Of a stretch of DNA of 64,000 nt, positions 10,264 through 34,516 are shown piece by piece. This stretch comes from an uncultured archaeon. GTDB lineage: Archaea > Asgardarchaeota > Lokiarchaeia > Sigyniarchaeales > Promethearchaeaceae. Location: NCBI GenBank assembly GCA_964426185.1, contig CAYRPF010000006.1:2652-66651 (forward strand). Direction: 5' to 3'. The translations under genes were made by a program, and so were the position numbers. Positions within the stretch are counted from its first letter, which is position 1, and every line of letters begins with the position of its first letter. The notes beneath the pieces are model-generated. The model made no database searches. It was not told the DNA's origin and was given only the letters and a program-made list of their open reading frames with translations.

Positions 10264-11154
10264 TTAATTATCTTGCACGCCCAGTTGGGTAATTAACTGC
10301 TTTTTTTGCGTCTCGACATCCCGTGAAAGACCGAATGTGTCGGCAAACTGATCAGTTGTAAATAACTCAGAAGATCGACCCTTCTTTCGCGCCTCAACAT
10401 AACCCCGGTCAATTAAAAATTTAACATGCTCATATGCTGTGGAACCACGCAACTTAACCAAAGTCGATTTCATCAAAGGTTGTTTTAAGGCAATAATAGT
10501 TAAGGTTTTCAGAATTGCATCGGGAATTAATCCTCCACTAGCGAATTTTTTCACTTTGGGCGTATATTCTGGCTTAATTTGCAAGCTGTATTTATCTTGA
10601 ATATGGACAATTTCTAACGCAGTTGGGCGCATTAAATAATCCATAGCTAATTCATCTAGTAATTTTTCCAATTCCCTTTTTCGGATATCGGTTTTAGTGC
10701 TTAATTCTTCAACAGAAACAGGTCTACCTGCAACAAAGAGTGCTCCTTCAACCACATTTTTCAAATGGATATAGGCTTCTTCTTCATCGCTCATGGGTGC
10801 AATATCTGCATTTTTTTTTTCAAGAGAATCTTTTTCAGAGCTAATTTCTTTGGTTTCTTGGCCAGATCGTTCATTCAATATCTCACGAATCAAAGTTTCA
10901 CCCGTTTTTACATCCTTAACTGCTTCAGTGTCTTTATCCATGAATTCCGTGTTTTCATTCTCTGTTACAGATTTTGATTCCATCATTTCTGAATCTTTTT
11001 CGATTTCCAAATTATTTAATTCAGAAATTTCTTCATTCCCCACACTTTCTCCAAGTTCATCTTCCAATTCTTCCAAGTCGGAAAGAATTTCCTCGTCCAA
11101 ATCAGAATCATCTTGCTTTTCCAATAGCTCCTTCTGTTCGGGTTTTTTTTCCAT
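10264..11154 (-). CDS. scpB: Segregation and condensation protein B (ScpB) with an acidic N-terminal extension
   Basis: EGALFVAGRPVSVEELS plus tandem winged-helix-like regions; sits directly downstream of scpA and smc. The N-terminal roughly 125 aa are D/E/S-rich. Confidence 0.82.
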   Translation of the reverse strand: MEKKPEQKELLEKQDDSDLDEEILSDLEELEDELGESVGNEEISELNNLEIEKDSEMMESKSVTENENTEFMDKDTEAVKDVKTGETLIREILNERSGQETKEISSEKDSLEKKNADIAPMSDEEEAYIHLKNVVEGALFVAGRPVSVEELSTKTDIRKRELEKLLDELAMDYLMRPTALEIVHIQDKYSLQIKPEYTPKVKKFASGGLIPDAILKTLTIIALKQPLMKSTLVKLRGSTAYEHVKFLIDRGYVEARKKGRSSELFTTDQFADTFGLSRDVETQKKQLITQLGVQDN

Positions 11155-11187: not shown

Positions 11188-12336
11188 CTAAAATTCTAAG
11201 CTTGTTTGATCAATGAGTTTAATCATTAAAGGCGCTTCAGTATCCTCTTGGTGCAAAATAATTTTACTTAATGAAGCCAAAAATAACATTTCTTCGAATG
11301 TTTGAATATATTTGACTTTCTTCTCTAATATTTTAAGCGAATTATCTTGATAAATCATATTTTTAAAATAATCCATTGAAACAGTGCGATTTGGTGGATT
11401 TTCCATTCGAATAATTTCAACTAATTGACGATGGCGGCGTTTTAAACGTTCCTCAATGGTTTCTTCACTTCCTGTAATATGCTTTAATATTTCTGCTGGT
11501 AATCGCCCCTTACCACGCTTTTTAACTTCTTTCTCGCGTTTTGCCATTTGCTGTTCTCGACGTATTCGAAGTTTTTCCCTTTTTTGCATTGTTTCAATAA
11601 TTGCGCGGCGCATTGCTCCGAAGAGTTCTTCTGAAGTAGCAATTTTCCGGGCTTCTCGTAGTGGTTGAGCGATAGGTTTTGGAATTTGCCTACGAATCCG
11701 TTCCCGCATTTCAGCTTTCTGGATTTCTTCTTCTTGTTTAATAACTCCAGTAATTTTAGAATGGTATAATTGGGCTGAAGAGTAAATTGCCAAGCCGGAG
11801 ATACGAAAATCGATTAATTCTTCTTCGACCATTTTCGAAACGAAATCTTCAATCAACGATGAAAGATCAAATTTAGTAAAATCCACTGTTTTCGCTAAGT
11901 CGGGGTCTAGGAGACTACGATAAGGTTCTTCCAGCCACCATTTCTTGATTTGAGAGATTTTTTCTAATTCTTCCTCCATTACATCTTTCTCTTCTAAATC
12001 CTCACCAACAGAGATCACTTCTTTTATTTTTGGTTCTGCAGGAGTCCTTTTTTCTTTAGGTTTTTTAGTGGTTTTTTGTGATTTTCTCGTTTGCGATGTT
12101 GTTGTCTTTGATGGTTTAGCGATTTTTGCATTTGTTACCTCTAATGGTTTTTGTTTTGAGATTGTTGAAACTTTTGATTTCGTCGATTTTTTAGATTTGG
12201 TTAATTTTTTTTTAGATTTTGACACACTACTCTTTTTTTTGCTCGACTTTTTACGTGAGGTTCCTTTTCGAGCTGAGGATTTCTTTGAACTAGTCTTTTT
12301 ATTTCTGGGTTTTTGAATTGTTTTTTCTGTTGTCAC
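11188..12336 (-). CDS. scpA: Segregation and condensation protein A (ScpA, kleisin) with a basic N-terminal extension
   Basis: ScpA-like core (FDLSSLIEDFVSKMVEEELIDFRISGLAIYSSAQL; C-terminal winged-helix region). The first roughly 105 aa are K/S/T-rich low complexity. Lies between smc and scpB. Confidence 0.8.
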   Translation of the reverse strand: MTTEKTIQKPRNKKTSSKKSSARKGTSRKKSSKKKSSVSKSKKKLTKSKKSTKSKVSTISKQKPLEVTNAKIAKPSKTTTSQTRKSQKTTKKPKEKRTPAEPKIKEVISVGEDLEEKDVMEEELEKISQIKKWWLEEPYRSLLDPDLAKTVDFTKFDLSSLIEDFVSKMVEEELIDFRISGLAIYSSAQLYHSKITGVIKQEEEIQKAEMRERIRRQIPKPIAQPLREARKIATSEELFGAMRRAIIETMQKREKLRIRREQQMAKREKEVKKRGKGRLPAEILKHITGSEETIEERLKRRHRQLVEIIRMENPPNRTVSMDYFKNMIYQDNSLKILEKKVKYIQTFEEMLFLASLSKIILHQEDTEAPLMIKLIDQTSLEF

Positions 12337-12362: not shown

Positions 12363-15300
12363 TTAATTCTGATCGGGAGTATCTTTTACCAACTCCACAT
12401 TCGTATCAAAATCCTCTCTTTCCTTTTCTTCTTCAAGATTAACTGTAAAAATATCGGTAATTCCGTCATTCATTGCAACCCCATAAATCCGATCTGCATT
12501 AGTGATATTTTCTTCTCGATGACTAATGACTAAAAATTGAGATTGTCTGGCATATTCTTTGATTACCATCGAAGTTCGATAAACATTTGGACCATCGAGA
12601 GCTGCATCTATTTCATCCATAATGTAAAATGGAGCGGGATAAAAGTTTTGGATTGCAAAAATAAAAGAAAGGGCAACCAATGTCTTTTCTCCGCCTGATA
12701 AAATGTCCAGCGATGAAATTTTCTTTCCTCTTGGTCTGGCTTCAATGGTTATTCCACCTTCAAAAGGATGGGCTGGATTTTCGAGAATCATTTTAGCGGA
12801 ACCGCCTGGAGATAGTTTTTGAAACACCGAACTAAACACCCGATTAATTTCGTGATATGCCTTCATGAAATTCCGCGTTTTTTCCAACTCAATACGGTCA
12901 ATAGAATCCAAAATAGCTTTACGCTCTCGTTGGAGAGTTTGCCGACGCATATCAATTTCATCCCAGCGTTCTTTGACTTCATCGTATTCTTCAATGGATT
13001 TTAAGTTTACTGGCTCTAAGGCTTTCTTTTCAGTGTTAGCGGTTCCAATTTTCTGATTTAATGTTTCTTCATTTAAATCATCTGTCACTGGTGGTAAGGT
13101 GCCGTAATCTTTTGATTTTTCAAAAAGTTCATCAATTTTTTCTTCTACTACAATTTTACGAGTTTCTAATCCGTTGAATTTGGCATTATTTCGTGATAAA
13201 TCCGCATTCAATTCACCTAGTTCATCTCGGAGCGATTTCTGTTTTTCCCAAGAAGCATTTTTTTGACCTTGAAGATCTGTCAATATTTCAATTTGTTTTA
13301 ATCGCGATTCTTCAAGTTTTGTAATTTTATCGGTTATAGATTTAATTAATTCTTGAAAATCGGCAATTTTATCTCCTAATTCACCCTCTTCGTCCTTAAG
13401 TTGTTCAATTTCGCCTTCCCGGGCCTTCATTTGAACTTGCTTATCCAACTTCTTTTCCAAAGCCTTAATTTGATTGCTAATTTCTTTAGACTGTGCTCTT
13501 AATTCTTTTTCTTTTGATTCTAATGACTGTCGTGCAGTTTGATGTTCGGCAATGAGTTTATTTTTCTCTTCAATTTGACTTTCTAATTCATGAATTTGGT
13601 TCTCCAATTCTTCATTACTCTTAGTATTTTCAGCAATTTTCTCGGTAGATTCGGTAATTTCTATTTCTAATGCTTCAATATCGGAAATTATTTTTTGAAC
13701 ATTTTGCAAATCCTTTATTCGACCGTTGACCTCACCCAGTTTATCCGATTCTAAGTCAATTTGGGCTTGTAGATCGGTTCTCACATCATCAGCCTTAGCT
13801 CTTTTCTCCTTAACTTCGGAAATTTTGGCGAGAATTTCATCAATTTCTTTTTGTACTTTTTCACTTTGAGTAGATAGATCTTGAATATTTTGGTTTTTTG
13901 TCTCAATTTCTACTTGTAATTTCTGCTGTTCTTCAGTTGCATTATCAATATCGTCCAATAGTCGCTTAACATTACTTAAACTATTTAAATCGTCCACAAT
14001 TTGTGCCAATTCTTCTGATTTCTCGTCAATCAGGCTCTGTAAGTCTTTTGAATCTTTCCAAAAATTTTCTGAAGATTGCTTCAATTCAGTTAACTTTTTG
14101 CTAATAGATTCAATTTCCTCTTTAATTTGACTCGCTTTGGTTGATTTTTCCTCAAATTCTTTTCTATTTGTTGAGATTTTAGATTCCAAATCATTAATTT
14201 TCTTTGTTAAGGCAGAGATTTGAGAGTTTGTTTGATTCAATTCTTGTTGTTTTTGCTCTAAATGGGCAGTAATTTTTGTAAATTGAACTGAAGCCTTAGA
14301 ATATCCTTCTGCTTGAGCGGAGATAGCTGTATTGAGATCTTCCAAAGCACGATAATGCTCAGAAGTATCTGCAACAGCCACAGCTTGAAGTGCTACCCTT
14401 ATTGAATCGAATTTATCAGTAAAATCTTGAATAAAACCATCAAAATTCGCCGTGGATTCATTTAATGCTTCATCACTAGCTTCTTGAACCATTTCATTTA
14501 ACTGAATTAAAGGTTGTTCTGCATTTTCAATCAACAATTTTAAAGTATTAACCGCAAAAGAGAGTTGTTCTTGAATTTCTCGGGGTTGATCAGGTGTCAT
14601 TTCAGAAATTTCTTCAATCGACCGAAGCATATCGGTAACATCGAGCACAAATGCTTTAAAAACCTTGCTGGATTCATCAATGGCAACTTGGCTCACATTT
14701 TGAATGTCTGATTTAATATCGCCTGCAGATCGGTCAATATTCAGAATAAGATTAGTGAGATTATCCAGAACAGAGTTTAATTCTACCTGGGTTTCGTTAT
14801 GTTCTGCTTCCTTTTTATCAATGGTTTCCTGCAGTTTTTCCCTTTCCTCTTTCATATGCTCTATTTTTTCACTGAAATTATCAAGTTGAGCTTGTAATTT
14901 AGTTTGTTCAGCGGATAGAGCGGCAATTTCTTTTTGTAGATTATCGTGAATAATTTGAATATGTTGTTGCTGACGTTGGCTGGAATGAAGATCTGTTTCT
15001 GCTGTTTTAAGTTCTACCCCTATTCCAGTAAGTTTCTTTTCTAAGTCTCCTAATTCCCCTTCTAATGCACGCCTTTTTAATTCAAATGACTCTTGCTTGG
15101 TTTGACTGCGTTTTTGTTCCTCGTTGGCAGAGTTTAATTGAGATTTTAAATCTTTGACTTGGTCACCAATTTTTTTTTCTTTAGATCTTAGGATTTTGAT
15201 TTGATCTTCCACAGCTTGCCCTTTAGTTAATTTTTCGTATTCTTTTTGAAGAGTGTTCTTTTTTGATTCCAGATCTTCGATTCGTTTTTTGATTAAATTT

Positions 15301-16826
15301 ATTTCTGCACCAGTTGAAGAGACTGCTGCTTGAATATCTGATTGAGATTTGGCAACCGTGTCTCTTTGTTTTTCTAATTTTAGAATTTCTTCATCTAATT
15401 GTTTTTGGAGGTTTTTTTGTTCAATAATAGATTGCTTAAGTTTGGTAATTTGATCTTGAATAGCTTTTGCTTCGGTATTGGCTTGTTCCATGGCCTGTTC
15501 TATGCTTTCTGCATCTTTTTGTAGTTTTTGTAAATCTTTATCTAATTGAGATTTTCTTTTTTCGTTCTTTTTGATAGATTTCTCAAGAAGCTTAATTTCA
15601 GTAGTTAAAGCTTTACTGTCTTGTTTAATCTTAGAAATTTCTTTGTTTATTTGAGCCTTTTCGGCGTTAATATCAGTGATGATTTGTTCTTCTTCTTTTT
15701 GTTTTACTTTATTTTCTTCAATAAGTCCTGCATTTTCATCAAGTGCTTGTTGTACTCCATCAATTTCTGTCTTAGTGCGTGCTATCAAATCATCAAAAGT
15801 TTGACCTTCTTCTAATTTCTCTTGAAGTTCTTCAAGTTTGATTATATTTTGTTGAAGCCGTTTTAAATTTTCTTCCGTGGCCTTGAGAGTTGCTTCTTTG
15901 GCAGAAAGTTCTGCTTTTTGAGCGGTAATTTCTTCATCTAATTTTGTTTTTTCAGTTTCTTGAACTTCAATATCTTCTTCTAATCCCTTTAAAAATAACG
16001 CTTCTGCTTCAATTTTATCTTTCTGTCGTTGAATTCTGTTTTTTAAGTCTTCAATTACCAATTGGGTAGATTCGATTTCTGCATTAATATCATCCTCTTC
16101 CAAGCGCATTTTATGAATTTTTAGTGCGATTAACTGAGCGTTGAATAAATTTACTTTATTATCTAGTTCTTTCCAACGAAGAGCATCATTTTTTTCTTTT
16201 TCAACTTTTTTCAATTGAGTAGAGACTTCTTTAAATATCGCCTCAAATTGACCTAAATCTTTATCTGCTTTCTCTAGCTCTTTCAATGTCTTATCTTTCA
16301 TTTCGTCATATTTACTTAATCCAATCAACATTTCAATAAATTCACGTCTTGCATTGGAACTCATATGAGTTAATTCTACGATTTTTCCTTGAAGAACAAA
16401 TTGATTAGAGCCATCAGGATCAATATTTGCTTGAGCAAGAGCATTTAAAATGGCCGTTCGGGTACTTGCCTTGCCTTGGATACGGTAACCACTAGTTCCA
16501 CTGCGTTTTATCCATCGCGACACTTTGAATTCATCAGAATCGCTGGGAAAAACCCGATCTTTATTATCAAAAACAATTTCTACTTCTGCACGAGTTGCTG
16601 GTTTAACTTTTTTAGATCCTGCGAAGATTAAATCAGTTAATTTTGTGGCGCGCATGGTAGACTTTGCCAATCGACCGAGAGCAAAACATAAACCATCAAT
16701 TACATTAGATTTTCCATTTCCATTCGGTCCCACAATGCATGTAAACCCTTTAGCAAGATTGACTGATACAGTGCGATTTCCGAAAGATTTGAACCCAGTC
16801 ATCACGACACGTTTTATATAGGTCAT
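12363..16826 (-). CDS. smc: SMC-family chromosome segregation ATPase, unusually long, no recognisable hinge
   Basis: N-terminal Walker A head FTCIVGPNGNGKSNVIDGLCFALG. C-terminal head has signature LSGGEKTLVALSFIFA and Walker B FYIMDEIDAALD. Between them lie about 1200 aa of coiled coil. It forms an operon with scpA and scpB. Confidence 0.9.
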   Translation of the reverse strand: MTYIKRVVMTGFKSFGNRTVSVNLAKGFTCIVGPNGNGKSNVIDGLCFALGRLAKSTMRATKLTDLIFAGSKKVKPATRAEVEIVFDNKDRVFPSDSDEFKVSRWIKRSGTSGYRIQGKASTRTAILNALAQANIDPDGSNQFVLQGKIVELTHMSSNARREFIEMLIGLSKYDEMKDKTLKELEKADKDLGQFEAIFKEVSTQLKKVEKEKNDALRWKELDNKVNLFNAQLIALKIHKMRLEEDDINAEIESTQLVIEDLKNRIQRQKDKIEAEALFLKGLEEDIEVQETEKTKLDEEITAQKAELSAKEATLKATEENLKRLQQNIIKLEELQEKLEEGQTFDDLIARTKTEIDGVQQALDENAGLIEENKVKQKEEEQIITDINAEKAQINKEISKIKQDSKALTTEIKLLEKSIKKNEKRKSQLDKDLQKLQKDAESIEQAMEQANTEAKAIQDQITKLKQSIIEQKNLQKQLDEEILKLEKQRDTVAKSQSDIQAAVSSTGAEINLIKKRIEDLESKKNTLQKEYEKLTKGQAVEDQIKILRSKEKKIGDQVKDLKSQLNSANEEQKRSQTKQESFELKRRALEGELGDLEKKLTGIGVELKTAETDLHSSQRQQQHIQIIHDNLQKEIAALSAEQTKLQAQLDNFSEKIEHMKEEREKLQETIDKKEAEHNETQVELNSVLDNLTNLILNIDRSAGDIKSDIQNVSQVAIDESSKVFKAFVLDVTDMLRSIEEISEMTPDQPREIQEQLSFAVNTLKLLIENAEQPLIQLNEMVQEASDEALNESTANFDGFIQDFTDKFDSIRVALQAVAVADTSEHYRALEDLNTAISAQAEGYSKASVQFTKITAHLEQKQQELNQTNSQISALTKKINDLESKISTNRKEFEEKSTKASQIKEEIESISKKLTELKQSSENFWKDSKDLQSLIDEKSEELAQIVDDLNSLSNVKRLLDDIDNATEEQQKLQVEIETKNQNIQDLSTQSEKVQKEIDEILAKISEVKEKRAKADDVRTDLQAQIDLESDKLGEVNGRIKDLQNVQKIISDIEALEIEITESTEKIAENTKSNEELENQIHELESQIEEKNKLIAEHQTARQSLESKEKELRAQSKEISNQIKALEKKLDKQVQMKAREGEIEQLKDEEGELGDKIADFQELIKSITDKITKLEESRLKQIEILTDLQGQKNASWEKQKSLRDELGELNADLSRNNAKFNGLETRKIVVEEKIDELFEKSKDYGTLPPVTDDLNEETLNQKIGTANTEKKALEPVNLKSIEEYDEVKERWDEIDMRRQTLQRERKAILDSIDRIELEKTRNFMKAYHEINRVFSSVFQKLSPGGSAKMILENPAHPFEGGITIEARPRGKKISSLDILSGGEKTLVALSFIFAIQNFYPAPFYIMDEIDAALDGPNVYRTSMVIKEYARQSQFLVISHREENITNADRIYGVAMNDGITDIFTVNLEEEKEREDFDTNVELVKDTPDQN

Positions 16827-16941: not shown

Positions 16942-19686
16942 ATGAGCAATTCTTCCAAAATTCTTCTTCCTTATATACTCAAACCAGAAGGAAAGATAGA
17001 ACCACTTGATATAGAAGATATTCCTTCAAAATTAATTTCTGTTAATATTTTGTATTTTTATCACTATGAAAAGAAAAGATTATATATTTGGATTGGTAAA
17101 AATGCAGGAAAGAAATTAAAGCAGACAATACCTACTGCAGAAGAAATAATTTTAAAAAAAAATCCAGATATCACAATTATTCGCCATTTTACGGTAGATG
17201 AAGGAAGCGAAACACATGATTTTTGGCAAGATACCGCTCTTAATCCCGAAAATATTAGAAAAATTCAGCAAAAATGGTCTGAATTCCGATTAGATCAATA
17301 TGCTTTGTTAGATAAACTTCGAATCAATATGACATCTGCTAAAAATACTGGTGATTTTGAAAACGCAATAAATTATATTGAACAAATACTTAAAGTTGCA
17401 GAAGAAATTTATGATTGGGATTTGATCGATGAATTCACACAATTACGTGATCAAATCCTTCGAGTAAAAGATTTGAGATCTCGAAAAGATGAAATCAAGC
17501 GCGAAATTCCCCATAAAATTGCCAAGCTTGATAAATTAATGGCAGAAAATGAGGTTATAAAAGCCCATGATTTAGCCGTTGAAATTCAAGAATATTACTC
17601 AATTTTATTTAATGAACCCATTCCCCGTAAATTTCAAAGATCATTAGACTCAGAAAAAATGTTGTACGATGAATATATTAGAATAAAGAAAGATATTAAT
17701 GATTTACAAGAGCGGTTTAATGAGTTCTTACCGGAAAGAAATTTAAGAACTCTCTATCGCATTGGTAAAAAACTCGTCCAATTAAATGAAAAATTTGACG
17801 ATATTACGATTGATCAGTCAATGATGGAACAAATTTCCTTAATTGAGGCACAATACAAAGAATGGGAAAAATCAGAAAGAGAATATAGAAATAATATAAC
17901 CACCTTAACATCAGCATACCAACGAGCAAAAAGTAACTATGAATTTGATGAGGCTCAGCAACATTTGGAGAAAATAATAGAATTAATTCAAACTTCAGAT
18001 CATAAAAGTGAATTAGAACAATGGGAAACTGAAATATCGAATTTGAAAGAATTAAAAAAACAATGGGAGCTGCAAAAAGAAGAAGCTAAAAAGAAAAAGT
18101 TAGAAAATCGTGATAAAATTAAGCAAATGCAAGCAGAAATTGAACAACAATTACATAATAGAAATTTCCCAGAAACCTTTGCTTCCGTGGAAAAACTCTA
18201 TCTTTTTGCCTCACAAACTCATGACGAAGAAATTGAAAAAGAAATTGCCAATTATCGGAAAGAAATTAATGAAAAAATAACAAACTTAAAGTTGTTAGAT
18301 ATATTATTGAAAAAAATTTCAGAATGGGAAGAATCTTTCCCTGAATTGAAAAAAACCAAGCAGTATGATACAATTTTAAGCGATCTCAATATATTCCTTT
18401 CTGATGAAGCCATAAATTATTCACTCGAACATAAAGCCAGATTATCAGAAATCAAATCGTCCATCGAAGAATTGAAGGAAAAATACTCGAAGAATGTAGC
18501 GCTCTATAATCGCTTATCTACAGAAATCAAAGAGAATGAAAATAAAGAGCAATGGATGGCTTTAACCCGTAATGCTAAACGCATTCAAGAAATCCTTCCT
18601 GAAATTGATAAGGAAAATGAGCACATAAAGTTTCAAGAAATAGAAAATTTAGCCAATCAAAAAATTAAGGAGAAAGAGAAGAAGAAAGAAGAAGAATTGG
18701 CTCAATTATTAAATAAAGCGAAAGAAATCGAAAATATCATCCAGAGTGAAAAAAAAATACTCCCATTGGTGGAGGATTTATCATTAGAAGACATCTTACC
18801 GAATTTATCTACCGATGTCAACGAAATGCTTACTCAAATTGAAAGCGTATTAGATAAGCAGCGCGTTGAGGTTAAGGATGATATGGAAAGTTCAATGCTG
18901 TTAACCAGTGCCTCGGGCGAAACTATGGAGATCACTGCAAAAATACAAGTTTCAATGGAGTCTGCTTCACTTGATAAGGAAACTTTGGAGATCTCCCCGT
19001 TTACGAAATTTAAGGCAAGTTCTGTGTTGGAAAATCCATTCCACGACGCAATTTCTGAGGTGATTATTGAAGATATTATTCCCTATAACTTTGAAATTTC
19101 TGATATAAACGTGGAGGGGGGCGATAATTTCGAAAAACCCGAAGAACAATTACACAAAGACGGCTTCGTCTTAAAATGGAAATTAAATAACATTCCCGCC
19201 CAAAACTCGGTTAAAATTAATTATGAATTACGTAAAAGAGTCTCACGAACTATTCTAATTCCCTTGGAAACGCAATTAAAGGTAATAAAAACCCATACGA
19301 GTATCAAAGATTATTCTCCAGAAGGTTTGTACGATGTAACCATGTTTTTCAAAAACAAATTTGCAAAGTCAGTCATCGGCGTTGTTATTGAAGATATAAT
19401 TCCAACCTTTTATCATTTCCAAATTAAACTTCCTAAGGATGCACTACCTGCTTCTCAAGTAGAACAACCAATTGGAGCACTTATTAAGTGGAATTATCAC
19501 GAAATTCTTGAAAATAAGGAATTGAAACATCAATATCGTCTGTTAAATTTGGCTCAATTTGAAAATTTAAAGATTTTAGTGGATAAATTGACACGTGAAG
19601 CTTATAATACACTTGAAAGAGGCGATATCGATAAATCTTTGGCAACTTATCAAAAAATTGTCAAAAAATTGCGAAAGTTTACCTAA
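16942..19686 (+). CDS. Large coiled-coil protein with an N-terminal gelsolin/villin-like domain and two C-terminal DUF11-like beta-sandwich repeats
   Basis: The N-terminus LYFYHYEKKRLYIWIGKNAGKKLKQTIPTAEEIIL...IIRHFTVDEGSETHDFWQ matches the gelsolin-repeat pattern (hhhWhG..a....aa.....l..... v.EG.Es..F). A K/E-rich coiled coil of about 550 aa follows. The two C-terminal repeats begin VIIEDIIPYNFEISD... and VVIEDIIPTFYHFQI.... Confidence 0.55.
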   Translation: MSNSSKILLPYILKPEGKIEPLDIEDIPSKLISVNILYFYHYEKKRLYIWIGKNAGKKLKQTIPTAEEIILKKNPDITIIRHFTVDEGSETHDFWQDTALNPENIRKIQQKWSEFRLDQYALLDKLRINMTSAKNTGDFENAINYIEQILKVAEEIYDWDLIDEFTQLRDQILRVKDLRSRKDEIKREIPHKIAKLDKLMAENEVIKAHDLAVEIQEYYSILFNEPIPRKFQRSLDSEKMLYDEYIRIKKDINDLQERFNEFLPERNLRTLYRIGKKLVQLNEKFDDITIDQSMMEQISLIEAQYKEWEKSEREYRNNITTLTSAYQRAKSNYEFDEAQQHLEKIIELIQTSDHKSELEQWETEISNLKELKKQWELQKEEAKKKKLENRDKIKQMQAEIEQQLHNRNFPETFASVEKLYLFASQTHDEEIEKEIANYRKEINEKITNLKLLDILLKKISEWEESFPELKKTKQYDTILSDLNIFLSDEAINYSLEHKARLSEIKSSIEELKEKYSKNVALYNRLSTEIKENENKEQWMALTRNAKRIQEILPEIDKENEHIKFQEIENLANQKIKEKEKKKEEELAQLLNKAKEIENIIQSEKKILPLVEDLSLEDILPNLSTDVNEMLTQIESVLDKQRVEVKDDMESSMLLTSASGETMEITAKIQVSMESASLDKETLEISPFTKFKASSVLENPFHDAISEVIIEDIIPYNFEISDINVEGGDNFEKPEEQLHKDGFVLKWKLNNIPAQNSVKINYELRKRVSRTILIPLETQLKVIKTHTSIKDYSPEGLYDVTMFFKNKFAKSVIGVVIEDIIPTFYHFQIKLPKDALPASQVEQPIGALIKWNYHEILENKELKHQYRLLNLAQFENLKILVDKLTREAYNTLERGDIDKSLATYQKIVKKLRKFT

Positions 19687-30988: not shown

Positions 30989-31078
30989 GAAATTTAAGCA
31001 CTATTTCTTTAAAAAATGCGTTGTTGGAAGATCAATAAAAAGAAAAAGAAAAAAAGGATTATAATCAATGTAATAATC

Positions 31079-34000
31079 ATGAATTTTTTGGATTTTTGGA
31101 AAGTATTCAGTATTCCTACCACTTTAAATGCTTGGACAATTGGTTTATTAATTTTCTTTGTGGGCAGTGTTATTTTGGGCTATATTATGATGGCATCTCA
31201 AGTAAAAATAGTTAAGAAAGAATTTTGGAAGGGAACAGATACCTTAAAATGTTTTATTTTTGGGTTTTTCTTTGGAAGTGCTTTAACCGTTATTGGAACT
31301 ACAATTATTACCTTCATTTTTGATTTAAACGATTTAGGATATCATGATCAAGCCATTCTACTAATCCTTCCAATGGTATTTTGCTTAATTTTTGTTAGCA
31401 TATATCCTCTTATTGAATTTTTATTTATGGCTCATTTTTCACATTATATATCCACTACACCTTTCCAAAAACCATTTGAATCTCTGATTAAAAAATTTCG
31501 AAAACCTTGGAGTTATATTATCGCGGTTATTTTATATTTCGTCGTTATGGTACTTCCAATTATTATTATGGTTGCGGGATTTCAAATTAAATTCATTATC
31601 GCTTGGTTAAGTTGGCAGTTAATATATCCCATGATTATCATTCTTTACTATGCATCCGTTGGTTATATCATAGCCTTTGGAATTTTTACTATTAGTATTC
31701 CATATTTACCGCGATCAACTTTTCTTCATCATGATAAGAGTAAACGAGCTGTGCAAGAATTTTTCCGAGATCCTGGTACTTATTTTACCTATTTCACCTT
31801 ATTTTATTCTTATATTTATTTCATTTACCGAACCTATGCTACTCTCACGAGATTTGATCTAAATTATGTTGCTTATTATCCTCCATGGTATAACGTTGAT
31901 TGGTCTATTCCTATTTCGTTAGCATTTGCAGTTACTGCATATTATCATCGATATTGGAAAAGAAAAGTTAAATCCTCCACACAATCTATTTTATTTTCCA
32001 CTTTTTTAATCGCGGCAATGGGAGTAAACATTATGTTGAATTACTTAATTTCCCGTCCATTTGTATTTCAAGAATTATTCGAAAAATGGGTTGTTACTGC
32101 TGAACTTTATGATGTACGCGGTTTCAACATATTGGGAAATCCCGTTGGAGTTTATACGGAGTTAAATTTGATTGGTGTGATCGAAGAATTGATGCTTTTC
32201 GTGATTATCTCTTATTTTTTCTTCATTCAAAAAAATCATAAAGCTATTCGTGATACATTCTTTGGAACGGTGACTTCTTCCGAAGAAAAATTCAATCCTA
32301 TTCCTGCATTCAACATGATTCGTTTTCAAGACGAATTTGAACAGCAATTTGCGTACGAATCTTTAGAACGAATGTACACGCGGATTCCTAATAAGCGTGG
32401 CTATGATTTCATTCAAAACAGATTTAGATTACCTCTTTTTGATGCACTTTCAGATCGTTCTCATAGATTTGGATATTATTGGAGTCAAAAACTTCTCACA
32501 AAAATAATGTCTGTTTATCCTATGAGGATAGCACCATTAGTCGAAAATGGATTACAATCTCCCAACAGCGACTTAATTTCTTCGATTTTTCAATGTTTCA
32601 CCCCTGAAACTTATCTATGTTTGAAAAAAATCGATGAAAAATTAATTCTATTTCACCTTAACGGTAGAAATTTAATTCTTAAACAACAAGCTCTAAAGAT
32701 TTTGCTGTTAAAATACACCAATGAAGAAGATTCTCAACTATCTCCATCAGATGAGCTATTAGAAGCTGCTCAACGGCTTCTTCTATTTCCTGATTATAAT
32801 ATCCAGAGTATGACTCTTCGTCTATTAGCGAACTTCCCAGAACAGGTTGATCATTCTATCTTTCTTTCCCGATTGAATGATCCCATTCCAGTTATTCAAA
32901 ATTCTGTAGCGCATATTGCAGGCGAAATTGCTAAGGATGAGATCAACTCATTAAGTATTCCAAAATTAATTGAAATGGCTTCGGATATTAATCCTAATAT
33001 TCGTGTAAAAGTTTTAGACACATTAGCAAAAATGGGGAATTTTGAAAAAAACAACATCCCAATTGAAATCTTCAAAGATAATATGTTTGATCCAAATGAT
33101 AAGATTCGACAAGTCTCCTTTCATGGATTGAGGGCTTATCTTCAAGAAAAACCCTACGCAATTTCAGTTAATTATTTATTGGAAATAACAGAAAATACTG
33201 AAATTGAAACCCAAAAATACCTTATCACTTTATTCCCCCCAATTTGGAAGCAAAATCCTTCTAAAATTTTGTCAATTTTGAAAAAATATTTAAAAATGCC
33301 TGAGCACAGCCTTTCTCGTTTAGCTCAAGAGCAAATTCTTAAAATGGCTCAACAAGATCCGCGATTTCTGGTGTCCGAATTGATATATGAATCTGAAACT
33401 GAAAGTATTTTGACGCGTGGGAAAATTGCCCAAACAATTCTTCAAATCTGTTTAAAATTTCCTAAGCAAACTATCCCTCTTTTGATTAAAAACCTCTCTT
33501 CTACAAATACTAATGCAAAAATTAATGCTGCTCGTGTATTAACAGATTTTTCCAAAAATCATACTCTTAACATCCCATTAAAAACTTTAGTTAATATTTG
33601 GAGAAATGAACCATCAGAAAACATAAAAAATGAATTAATTCCATTAATTAAGTATGTTGGGTTAAAAGAGCCTAATAAAATTGCACAATTCATTGAAGAT
33701 TTTAGTAAAATTTATGCTAAATCAAGTAAAGCTTTAAAACTATCCATTGCAAAAATGTTTTCCATTTTATCGGCTAAGAATCCAAACCTCATTCCTTTGA
33801 AATTGGTTGAGAAGATGGTCGAAGATCCAGAATCTTCCATCCGAGAACAAGGCTATAATATTTTAAGTAAAATTGAAGACAAAAATTTGAAAAAAAGGAT
33901 TAATATTTTGAAAAAGGGGTTGAAAGAAGAAGATCTGAACATTAAGAAAAATGTAATTCAAGATTTAATGAAATTGGCTTTGCACTTAAACGACTCCAAG

Positions 34001-34516
34001 CTATTTACCAACATTCTCAAATTACTCGATGATTCAAATAAATGGACTAGAAAAGCAGTGTGGGATGCTCTTGCATTGTTGGAAAACCAGTCGAAAAATG
34101 TATTAGATGTAAAGAAGATCTTGAGCAATATTGATCTAAATACTGAAGTAGAAGAAGTTATTTATTCCTTTTTAAAATGGGCAGGAATGTTAAGTAAAAA
34201 TGAATTTGAGCAAATATTTCCTTATATATTGAAATTAATGGAACATGAAAAGGAATCAATTCGGACTGCTGCAATTTCAACTTTAGTCAGATTATCGGAA
34301 AATTTAAAATCCGATCAGATAATTCCACGGTTGCTAAGTTATCTTTCAGATGAAACTCCAGTTAGACTGGAAGAATCGGTGGTTTTAGCACTAAACCGGA
34401 TTGCAAAATATGAGAAAAAAGAAATTAAAGAGCGAGTGATTAGATTATTAAGTATTCGAGCTCACAACACACAGAATAAAATTTTCCAACATGTTTTAGC
34501 AGATTTAAAAAAATAG
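31079..34516 (+). CDS. Polytopic membrane protein fused to a long HEAT/ARM-repeat solenoid
   Basis: The first roughly 390 aa hold about 10 hydrophobic helices. The remaining roughly 750 aa show repeated HEAT-like units (DINPNIRVKVLDTLAKMG, DPNDKIRQVSFHGLRAY, DPESSIREQGYNILSKI, DSNKWTRKAVWDALALL, HEKESIRTAAISTLVRLS). Start taken at ATG 31079 (MNFLDFW) rather than the poly-K leader at 31016. Confidence 0.7.
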   Translation: MNFLDFWKVFSIPTTLNAWTIGLLIFFVGSVILGYIMMASQVKIVKKEFWKGTDTLKCFIFGFFFGSALTVIGTTIITFIFDLNDLGYHDQAILLILPMVFCLIFVSIYPLIEFLFMAHFSHYISTTPFQKPFESLIKKFRKPWSYIIAVILYFVVMVLPIIIMVAGFQIKFIIAWLSWQLIYPMIIILYYASVGYIIAFGIFTISIPYLPRSTFLHHDKSKRAVQEFFRDPGTYFTYFTLFYSYIYFIYRTYATLTRFDLNYVAYYPPWYNVDWSIPISLAFAVTAYYHRYWKRKVKSSTQSILFSTFLIAAMGVNIMLNYLISRPFVFQELFEKWVVTAELYDVRGFNILGNPVGVYTELNLIGVIEELMLFVIISYFFFIQKNHKAIRDTFFGTVTSSEEKFNPIPAFNMIRFQDEFEQQFAYESLERMYTRIPNKRGYDFIQNRFRLPLFDALSDRSHRFGYYWSQKLLTKIMSVYPMRIAPLVENGLQSPNSDLISSIFQCFTPETYLCLKKIDEKLILFHLNGRNLILKQQALKILLLKYTNEEDSQLSPSDELLEAAQRLLLFPDYNIQSMTLRLLANFPEQVDHSIFLSRLNDPIPVIQNSVAHIAGEIAKDEINSLSIPKLIEMASDINPNIRVKVLDTLAKMGNFEKNNIPIEIFKDNMFDPNDKIRQVSFHGLRAYLQEKPYAISVNYLLEITENTEIETQKYLITLFPPIWKQNPSKILSILKKYLKMPEHSLSRLAQEQILKMAQQDPRFLVSELIYESETESILTRGKIAQTILQICLKFPKQTIPLLIKNLSSTNTNAKINAARVLTDFSKNHTLNIPLKTLVNIWRNEPSENIKNELIPLIKYVGLKEPNKIAQFIEDFSKIYAKSSKALKLSIAKMFSILSAKNPNLIPLKLVEKMVEDPESSIREQGYNILSKIEDKNLKKRINILKKGLKEEDLNIKKNVIQDLMKLALHLNDSKLFTNILKLLDDSNKWTRKAVWDALALLENQSKNVLDVKKILSNIDLNTEVEEVIYSFLKWAGMLSKNEFEQIFPYILKLMEHEKESIRTAAISTLVRLSENLKSDQIIPRLLSYLSDETPVRLEESVVLALNRIAKYEKKEIKERVIRLLSIRAHNTQNKIFQHVLADLKK

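Follow-up and report, generated by a model that had tools for sequence, protein, structure and literature searches.

An Smc-ScpAB operon of Lokiarchaeia whose SMC protein lacks a hinge and carries a long helical insert in its place

On the minus strand of the 64,000-nucleotide stretch of Lokiarchaeial DNA analysed here (contig CAYRPF010000006.1 of assembly GCA_964426185.1; hereafter the window, with a G+C content of about 34%), an SMC protein of 1487 residues is encoded by the first gene of an smc-scpA-scpB operon. We conclude with high confidence that this protein has no hinge domain. Its ATPase heads and the head-proximal halves of its arms are those of a canonical Smc, and the place of the hinge is taken by an all-helical insert of 466 residues, in which the chain turns back on itself as a hairpin. 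In SMC proteins the hinge holds the dimer together constitutively and binds DNA, and in cohesin it also serves as a DNA entry gate (PMC10512200). It is usually treated as a defining part of an SMC protein, and what we describe is, judged by synteny and similarity, a true Smc-ScpAB orthologue that does without it, with arms about 60% longer, across a large clade of Asgard archaea. The operon and the parts of the protein lie as follows in the window.

12363-16826, minus strand: smc, 1487 aa, with canonical heads and no hinge (open reading frame and translation, Pfam SMC_N, NCBIfam, PDB search)
16302-16826, minus strand: N-terminal half of the ATPase head, aa 1-175, with Walker A at aa 33-40; the most conserved part of the family
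15327-16301, minus strand: proximal N-arm, aa 176-500, collinear with the canonical SMC N-arm and with a heptad pattern
13929-15326, minus strand: all-helical insert in the hinge position, aa 501-966 (466 aa), comprising the distal arm extensions and the apex module
14334-14768, minus strand: apex module, aa 687-831 (145 aa), a conserved, acidic, hydrophobic-rich helical hairpin; proposed dimerisation interface
14583-14603, minus strand: hairpin turn, aa 742-748 (EMTPDQP), from both AlphaFold2 models and the proline positions
12957-13928, minus strand: proximal C-arm, aa 967-1290, collinear with the canonical SMC C-arm
12363-12956, minus strand: C-terminal half of the head, aa 1291-1487, with the signature at aa 1376 and Walker B at aa 1403
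11188-12336, minus strand: scpA-like kleisin gene, 382 aa, beginning 26 nt downstream of smc
10264-11154, minus strand: scpB, 296 aa, beginning 33 nt downstream of scpA

Absence of the hinge domain

The three head motifs quoted in a preliminary description of this DNA, which was made from the sequence alone, stand where it had placed them: Walker A (GPNGNGKS, aa 33), the signature (LSGGEKT, aa 1376) and Walker B (MDEIDAALD, aa 1403). Pfam SMC_N matches the protein with E=3.4e-45, and in a sequence search of the PDB the heads match Pyrococcus Smc (5xei, E=7e-124), with the heads of SMC1-4 at 1e-46 to 1e-49 and weaker matches to Rad50 (about 1e-8) and to SMC5/SMC6 (5e-7 to 1e-3). The protein scores above the cut-off of TIGR02168 (583 against 567.35 bits) and below that of the archaeal-type model TIGR02169 (635.7 against 729.4 bits); the match to the latter is broken into four stretches because the hinge is missing.

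The preliminary description had found no hinge features in the central segment, which it placed at 14262-14774 and which codon arithmetic confirms to be aa 685-855 of the minus-strand open reading frame. The searches agree with it. A Pfam scan returned no match to PF06470 (SMC_hinge) in the 1487-residue protein even at E<=1, while four of the closest canonical SMCs of archaea gave PF06470 matches of E=1e-26 to 1e-36 in the identical scan. A custom hinge hidden Markov model (HMM), for which we took the 86 sequences with a hinge out of the 150 top-ranking representatives in our head search, matches nearly all SMCs of 1100-1200 aa and gave zero matches, even at i-E<10, against 120 members of the family to which the window protein belongs. 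The precomputed domain lists of more than 115 full-length homologues likewise contain no PF06470, which the lists of canonical SMCs do carry. When the profile of the centre (aa 660-860) was aligned with the hinge profile in hhalign, the reported probability was 0.6%, and no GRxTFLPL-like strand was found in the centre. The composition of the protein is of the same kind: there are 3 glycines in the 171 residues of aa 685-855, the only prolines between aa 138 and 1244 are P745, P748 and P772, two of which sit in the hairpin turn, and the only cysteines are C30 and C47. No cysteine thus lies outside the N-terminal head, as had been observed before, and there is no CxxC zinc hook. Two Pfam families that stand in the family's precomputed domain lists and were considered as specific to the centre, PF27241 and PF24161, were rejected as generic because they also occur in hinge-bearing Thermococcus SMCs; we found no mention of either in the literature.

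Aligned with a profile of 20 hinge-bearing archaeal SMCs (1180 positions), the protein is collinear with canonical SMC on both sides of the hinge: profile positions 1-500 correspond to aa 1-500 (E=2e-119) and positions 680-1177 to aa 967-1469 (E=1.5e-111). The hinge positions of the profile (about 500-680) are skipped, and aa 501-966 match only its coiled-coil parts, weakly. Since the canonical profile skips its own hinge positions, we conclude that the 466-aa insert has taken the place of a hinge of about 190 aa. The exchange also accounts for the roughly 300 aa by which the protein, as noted from the outset, exceeds its canonical relatives of 1160-1200 aa.

AlphaFold2 models of the centre, computed as a monomer, consist of helices only and show no hinge fold. 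For aa 560-960, modelled from an alignment of 117 sequences, the mean predicted local distance difference test score (pLDDT) is 84.6, with values above 90 in the arms and of 57-75 around the tip; the helices span aa 561-741, 748-767, 770-818 and 822-959, with a loop at 742-747 between the first two. In the shorter model, which covers aa 670-850 at pLDDT 76.4, two helices (aa 671-742 and 749-849) form a plain hairpin. At the centre, both models depart from helix only in the turn at aa 742-748, from which we conclude that the chain reverses at EMTPDQ(P), in keeping with the midpoint of about aa 743 given in the preliminary description; across the family this turn varies in both length and sequence. 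Foldseek searches of the PDB with the aa 560-960 model returned the MukB elbow (6h2x), Rad50 (7zr1), a chemoreceptor (2ch7) and Smc arm fragments (5xg2, 5nnv), and with the apex-only model nothing below E=1, the matches being generic hairpins with no specific structural relative among them; no hinge structure was found among the matches of either model. In a PDB sequence search, the centre drew nothing beyond keratin, dynein and designed coiled coils, all at E>0.02. The long antiparallel coiled-coil arm of an SMC protein is present, to judge by the pLDDT above 90, the arm fragments returned by Foldseek and the heptads. Taking the skipped hinge positions together with the strandless fold-back models, we conclude that the protein has lost its hinge and gained arm length: among the attributes of an SMC proper, it has the head and the ScpA/ScpB partners and lacks the central PF06470 hinge.

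We also observed an internal similarity in the C-arm, where aa 880-961 (13944-14189, minus strand) resemble aa 970-1051 (13674-13919, minus strand) with 28% identity over 82 aa (E=5e-6, 34.7 bits; the best of 20 shuffles reached 23.9). This is only a hint that part of the arm extension may have arisen by duplication of the adjoining arm.

Family, operon and relation to known systems

In a homologue search we obtained over 115 full-length proteins, 1460-1505 aa long and 41-100% identical, all of them labelled as Asgard. Their labels, given here as deposited, include Promethearchaeota, Lokiarchaeia, Ca. Lokiarchaeum ossiferum and Harpocratesius, and some metagenome-assembled genomes (MAGs) are labelled Thor- or Hodarchaeota. 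The nearest genomic relative of the window gene is that of Ca. Harpocratesius repetitus (79% identity), and orthologues of 1493 and 1505 aa, with 61% and 63% identity, are encoded in the closed genomes of Promethearchaeum syntrophicum strain MK-D1 and Ca. L. ossiferum, respectively. The head search sets the family apart: its members all have at least 62% identity, and after a gap the canonical SMCs follow at 48% or less. The hinge loss is common to all of these more than 115 homologues, and a comparison of Asgard orthologues, which the preliminary description had proposed, thus bears it out. By lineage, the hinge is kept in the SMC of Odinarchaeia and of some other Asgard MAGs and is missing in Lokiarchaeia and Sigynarchaeota. 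A 4-kb contig binned as 'Bacillota bacterium' (DAITAL010000089.1, our locus L003) encodes a 57%-identical copy of the Asgard SMC and is most likely of Asgard origin, assigned to the wrong bin.

Hinge loss of the Lokiarchaeia type is apparently real, conserved and undescribed: within an incomplete coverage of the literature, we found no paper describing loss of the hinge in an Asgard SMC, and a 2024 review presents Asgard chromosome biology as unstudied (PMC11344861). The trait is shared by both cultured Asgard archaea and is therefore testable in the laboratory, the MK-D1 and L. ossiferum proteins being open to expression and direct examination. It constitutes a natural experiment on which SMC activities, among them dimerisation, DNA entrapment, loop extrusion and arm-length tuning, need a hinge. 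In current scenarios SMC1-4 derive from a condensin/cohesin-type SMC of Asgard archaea (10.1101/2024.01.07.573240; PMC8665677); as the Asgard SMC is hinge-less in some lineages and hinge-bearing in others, hinge status may serve as a discrete character for tracing the eukaryotic donor lineage.

The smc-scpA-scpB operon recognised in the preliminary description stands up to profile searches. The scpB product matches PF04079 (E=2.7e-34) and scores 102.7 bits with TIGR00281 (cut-off 89.2). Searched on its own, the middle gene has no Pfam match; a profile of seven orthologues of it matches the ScpA N-domain structure 6ivh with E=2.3e-5. The order smc, kleisin, scpB is kept in six further genomes, including those of MK-D1 and L. 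ossiferum. One Asgard MAG, GCA_048939465.1 (locus L013), has a hinge-bearing SMC of 1187 aa in the same type of operon, with a ScpA of 237 aa and a ScpB of 193 aa, and with Roadblock/LC7 genes nearby. The hinge-less protein therefore fills the orthologous slot, and by synteny and similarity the gene is an orthologue of prokaryotic Smc, the ATPase of the condensin-like Smc-ScpAB complex.

The partner proteins carry charged extensions, which we compared among seven hinge-less operons (the window locus and L001, L004, L006, L007, L010 and L011). All seven kleisins have an N-terminal extension of 81-128 aa (in the window ScpA aa 1-128, 11953-12336, minus strand), which in five of them is polybasic, with a net charge of +9 to +27 before the conserved SLLDP motif; the first 100 aa of the window ScpA have a net charge of +34. 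ScpB is likewise extended in every one of the seven, by 127-205 aa with a net charge of -30 to -68; the polyacidic extension of the window ScpB measures 130 aa with a net charge of -30 (aa 1-130, 10765-11154, minus strand). Neither extension is found in the hinge-bearing operon L013, a distribution that suggests co-evolution of the partner extensions with hinge loss. Two Promethearchaeia MAGs (L006 and L010) differ in that their kleisin extension has no basic charge (net -2 and -5) and contains a CPYCGK...HKC motif; the kleisin N-terminus at L006:10454-10530 and L010:10454-10530 opens with MPKCPYCGKTFKRLSQHKCPKK, in which the CxxC...HxC pattern resembles a small zinc finger.

The protein could instead be a paralogue, an SMC-like protein that serves repair, defence or some other purpose outside condensin function, with a canonical hinge-bearing Smc elsewhere in the genome. 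MK-D1 does have a second, SMC5/6-related cluster, hinge-bearing SMCs labelled Promethearchaeota or Odinarchaeia exist, and the TIGR02169 score lies below its cut-off. We nevertheless give this reading very little credence, because the gene sits in an scpA-scpB operon, in the same slot as the hinge-bearing SMC of GCA_048939465.1, aligns collinearly with canonical SMC along 1000 aa (E values of about 1e-119 and 1e-111), and is adjoined by no nuclease or defence genes in a Pfam scan of its neighbours. A published inventory of MK-D1, moreover, classes genes 810-808 as condensin/cohesin-related and counts one SMC of this type, alongside a separate SMC5/6-related cluster (genes 495-497; Supplementary Table 3) whose complex has its own kleisin and kite (10.1101/2024.01.07.573240). 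The separate canonical smc that would have marked the protein as a paralogue, a possibility raised in the preliminary description, is not listed there for P. syntrophicum; against this it must be said that a single condensin/cohesin-type SMC per Lokiarchaeial genome rests on the table of one preprint. Alternatively, the centre could be a hinge so divergent as to escape detection by sequence. Hinge models probably do overlook genuine hinges, as in the Freyarchaeota SMC P0129 (Ca. Freyrarchaeum guaymaensis, 1162 aa), which matches neither PF06470 nor the hinge HMM, yet aligns with TIGR02169 as one stretch through the hinge region and has strand-like motifs (GLTRITVFP) in its centre; we take that centre to be, probably, a very divergent hinge. 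In the window protein, by contrast, the canonical profile breaks precisely at the hinge, TIGR02169 aligns in four stretches, neither AlphaFold2 model contains a strand, and the scarcity of glycine, the missing GRxTFLPL-like strand and the hhalign result all point the same way, so that a cryptic hinge deserves scarcely any credence. An artefact, in the form of a mis-assembled, frameshifted or fused reading frame, can practically be set aside: the more than 115 independent full-length homologues have nearly the same length and come from many assemblies, including the two closed genomes of cultured strains, no tandem repeats were found in the smc gene, and within 14000-15000 the opposite strand offers no competing reading frame, only ones of 48 and 61 aa.

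The closest known counterpart is canonical Smc-ScpAB (Pyrococcus, Thermococcus and B. subtilis; 5xei, 4i99), with which the window system shares the head motifs, the collinear proximal arms and the ScpA/ScpB operon. It differs in the lack of PF06470, the 466-aa helical insert and a rod strand about 1.6 times as long, in an apex that is acidic where canonical hinges are on average slightly basic, and in the charged N-terminal extensions of ScpA and ScpB. We therefore regard it as a variant of the Smc-ScpAB machine rather than as a new kind of system, with the role of its apex a matter of inference. Rad50/SbcC resembles the window SMC in combining a head with a long helical fold-back and no globular hinge, and Foldseek returns Rad50 (7zr1); the window SMC, however, has no CxxC, its partners are ScpA and ScpB rather than Mre11/SbcD, and its head is far less similar to that of Rad50 than to that of SMC. 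Membership in Rad50/SbcC was rejected, as the NCBIfam models score 22-102 bits against cut-offs of 700-1087, PF04423 has no match and no nuclease neighbours the gene. An SMC5/6-related archaeal SMC was also judged not to fit, the kite being of the ScpB type, the SMC5/6 head matches weak and the MK-D1 SMC5/6 cluster a different locus. The models of RecN gave 19-22 bits against cut-offs above 400 (RecN TIGR00634), and a MukB/JetC-type protein was rejected since there is no MukB or JetC Pfam match and the partners are ScpA and ScpB. Among archaeal proteins with SMC-like heads and no canonical hinge, ASRP (NF045487; 153 bits against a cut-off of 300) and arcadin-4/Rkd4 (NF053563; 36 bits against 860 for Rkd4) were likewise rejected; unlike the window SMC, they are much shorter and not linked to ScpAB. 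ClsN/coalescin, another archaeal SMC-related protein with an SMC-like head and no canonical hinge, is also shorter and is not known to be linked to ScpAB.

The one published 'hinge-less SMC' that came up in our literature search is a marine actinobacterial cluster known only from ocean metagenomes, which has SMC-type heads and a coiled coil with neither hinge nor zinc hook, as does the window protein, and which the paper presents as SMC biology of a new kind (Sussfeld et al. 2025, PMC12153180). Compared by description only, the two differ in that the actinobacterial cluster is bacterial and of undefined genomic context, whereas the family described here is archaeal, has a defined place in an scpAB operon, reaches a much greater length and is present in cultured organisms. 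Because of the different domain of life and the different length, a common descent of the two hinge losses is unlikely.

The apex module and closure of the ring

The tip of the hairpin is a distinct functional module, set apart by its conservation, its acidity and an additional hydrophobic stripe, and recognisable in a shorter SMC of Sigynarchaeota. Over 119 full-length homologues, the fraction of the most common residue, taken in blocks of 30 aa, is 0.59-0.83 for aa 661-840 as against 0.53-0.65 in the flanking arms, and it exceeds 0.75 on both sides of the turn; the alignment of 117 sequences shows no variation at K705, Q709, D729, S791 and D796. Averaged over the family, hydrophobicity is higher in the apex (0.32-0.41, up from 0.21-0.30) and charge density is lower. 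The net charge of aa 687-831 is -19 (family mean -15.8, sd 2.2), as against a mean of +3.3 for the 86 segments of canonical hinges. An HMM built on aa 660-860 matches the Sigynarchaeota SMC P0125 (1296 aa; module at aa 566-760) with E=4e-32 and does not match canonical SMCs; the apex of P0125 has a net charge of -16, and its arms are about 95 aa shorter on each strand. Searched against a set of 5.8 billion proteins, a profile of the apex alignment recovered four short fragments and no known full-length member, a result that is uninformative on the size of the family or its architectures.

The heptad pattern also changes at the apex. The preliminary description had called the central segment Gly-poor, apparently all-helical and non-heptad; the first two attributes hold, whereas the third is too strong, since the heptad score of the centre is weakened (0.35-0.49, compared with 0.5-0.7 in the arms) and not absent. 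In the arms the register has two hydrophobic positions (0.78 and 0.6), with the third and fourth at 0.27 and 0.17. In the two apex helices the corresponding values are 0.81, 0.71, 0.59 and 0.36, and 0.82, 0.67, 0.51 and 0.41, and conserved hydrophobic columns number 2.7-3.0 per heptad as against about 1.75 in the arms. Such a pattern would fit a bundle of more than two helices. The best structural analogues retrieved are the cytoplasmic domain of chemoreceptors (2ch7), the DHp domain of histidine kinases and the RecN coiled-coil interface, antiparallel hairpins of which two copies form a four-helix bundle; given the generic nature of the matches, which for the apex by itself all have E>1, they serve as an analogy for mechanism and not as evidence of homology.

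From these observations we somewhat favour the hypothesis that two apex hairpins dimerise and so replace the hinge as the permanent interface of a true Smc-ScpAB complex. In this protein the hinge has been exchanged for the 466-aa helical insert with the canonical arm halves (aa 176-500 and 967-1290) retained, and these are lengthened by about 185 and 135 aa of coiled coil up to the tight turn at aa 742-748, giving a rod strand of about 555 aa, or an estimated 80 nm at about 0.15 nm per residue, where canonical SMC measures about 50 nm. Next to the turn, the final 55-85 residues of each strand form the conserved acidic hairpin, with a hydrophobic face wider than a two-stranded coiled coil needs, and on our hypothesis two such hairpins would pack side by side into a four-helix bundle serving as the constitutive dimer interface. 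The tripartite SMC-SMC-kleisin ring would thereby stay closed through the apex bundle, while ATP-driven head engagement, bridging by ScpA and binding of ScpB would proceed unchanged from other Smc-ScpAB complexes. Because it is acidic, the apex probably does not bind DNA, unlike many hinges, and the DNA-contact role may, speculatively, have shifted to the polybasic N-terminal tail found on the kleisin of most of these operons. The low pLDDT of the apex in the monomer model (57-75) would fit a missing partner.

We stress that several observations speak against dimerisation at the apex. The AlphaFold2 monomer is a self-contained two-helix hairpin, and nothing about it demands a partner; two acidic hairpins, at about -19 each, would repel one another unless counter-ions or a basic partner intervene; and the hydrophobic surplus could serve an intramolecular fold or some other binding partner. 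In addition, no more than five positions are invariant in the 117 sequences, and only Q709 and D729 of these survive in the most divergent members, so that what holds an interface together, if there is one, would be the pattern of hydrophobic positions and not particular residues. As the main alternative, the same features could belong to a fold-back that does not dimerise, in which the subunits are joined only by the ATP-engaged heads and the kleisin and the acidic tip is a docking or regulatory site. The tip might then bind the polybasic N-tail of ScpA as an autoinhibitory DNA mimic, bind another partner, or contact the heads after folding at an elbow. The complete hairpin obtained for a monomer and the like charges that disfavour contact between apices are in keeping with this, as is the pairing of an apex of -19 with a kleisin tail of +34 in its first 100 aa, the extensions occurring together with hinge loss in all seven operons. 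We consider it possible but doubtful. To our knowledge, every characterised SMC or SMC-like protein is joined at its tip, by a hinge, by a zinc hook (Rad50) or by a coiled-coil interface (RecN). The hydrophobic surplus is greater than a charged docking site needs, and in L006 and L010 the apex is conserved although the kleisin extension is not basic (-2 and -5). For characterised SMC proteins, junction of the arm tips by the hinge is documented (PMC10512200). The preliminary description had offered a novel apex or dimerisation module and a simple helical fold-back with longer arms as alternatives; the evidence fits the two combined, a fold-back with longer arms that ends in a distinct apex module, which we continue to regard as the candidate dimer interface.

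A broader version of the dimerisation hypothesis is one that we put forward tentatively and think unlikely to hold in full. In it, Lokiarchaeia and their relatives would have rebuilt Smc-ScpAB as a whole: an acidic four-helix-bundle apex, a new dimerisation module, would sit on arms of about 80 nm, the kleisin would in step have gained its extension (polybasic in most operons, zinc-finger-like in two) and ScpB its polyacidic one, DNA contacts and regulation would have moved to the kleisin/kite base, and the acidic apex or the ScpB tail would act as an intramolecular DNA mimic for the basic tail. If true, an SMC ring would be closed and controlled independently of a hinge in the prokaryotes closest to eukaryotes, and the Asgard ancestors of eukaryotic SMC1-4 would have belonged to a lineage in which the hinge was still present.

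Neighbouring genes and a second hinge-less class

The genes around the operon encode a radical SAM protein, an oxidoreductase, a domainless protein of 914 aa, a HEAT-repeat protein, a methylase, RNR and ClpB, and have no evident connection with it. HEAT-repeat 'hawk' subunits accompany eukaryotic condensin and cohesin. The HEAT-repeat gene of the window (31016-34516, plus strand, 1166 aa) lies about 14 kb from the smc operon, and with nothing tying it to the operon its presence is probably a coincidence. The reading frame of 914 aa (16942-19686, plus strand) adjoins smc divergently and has no Pfam domain, only faint TPR matches. In Ca. Harpocratesius, an open reading frame of equal length occupies the same position relative to smc (L001:3117-5861; compared by length and position only), and the other smc loci examined have none of 914 aa there.

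The head search also brought up a second hinge-less class, of about 946-991 aa, one cluster of which is named as SMC of Nanoarchaeota (DPANN); its members are P0139, P0143, P0151, P0153, P0158, P0165, P0173, P0201, P0208, P0221, P0247 and P0250. We found no publication on it. The N-terminal heads of these proteins are 44-46% identical to that of the window SMC and score about 526 bits with SMC models as against about 103 bits with Rad50 models, and each protein has a CP[LTVFIK]C motif exactly at its midpoint, an arrangement that, as predicted from the sequences, amounts to a Rad50-style zinc hook on an SMC chassis.

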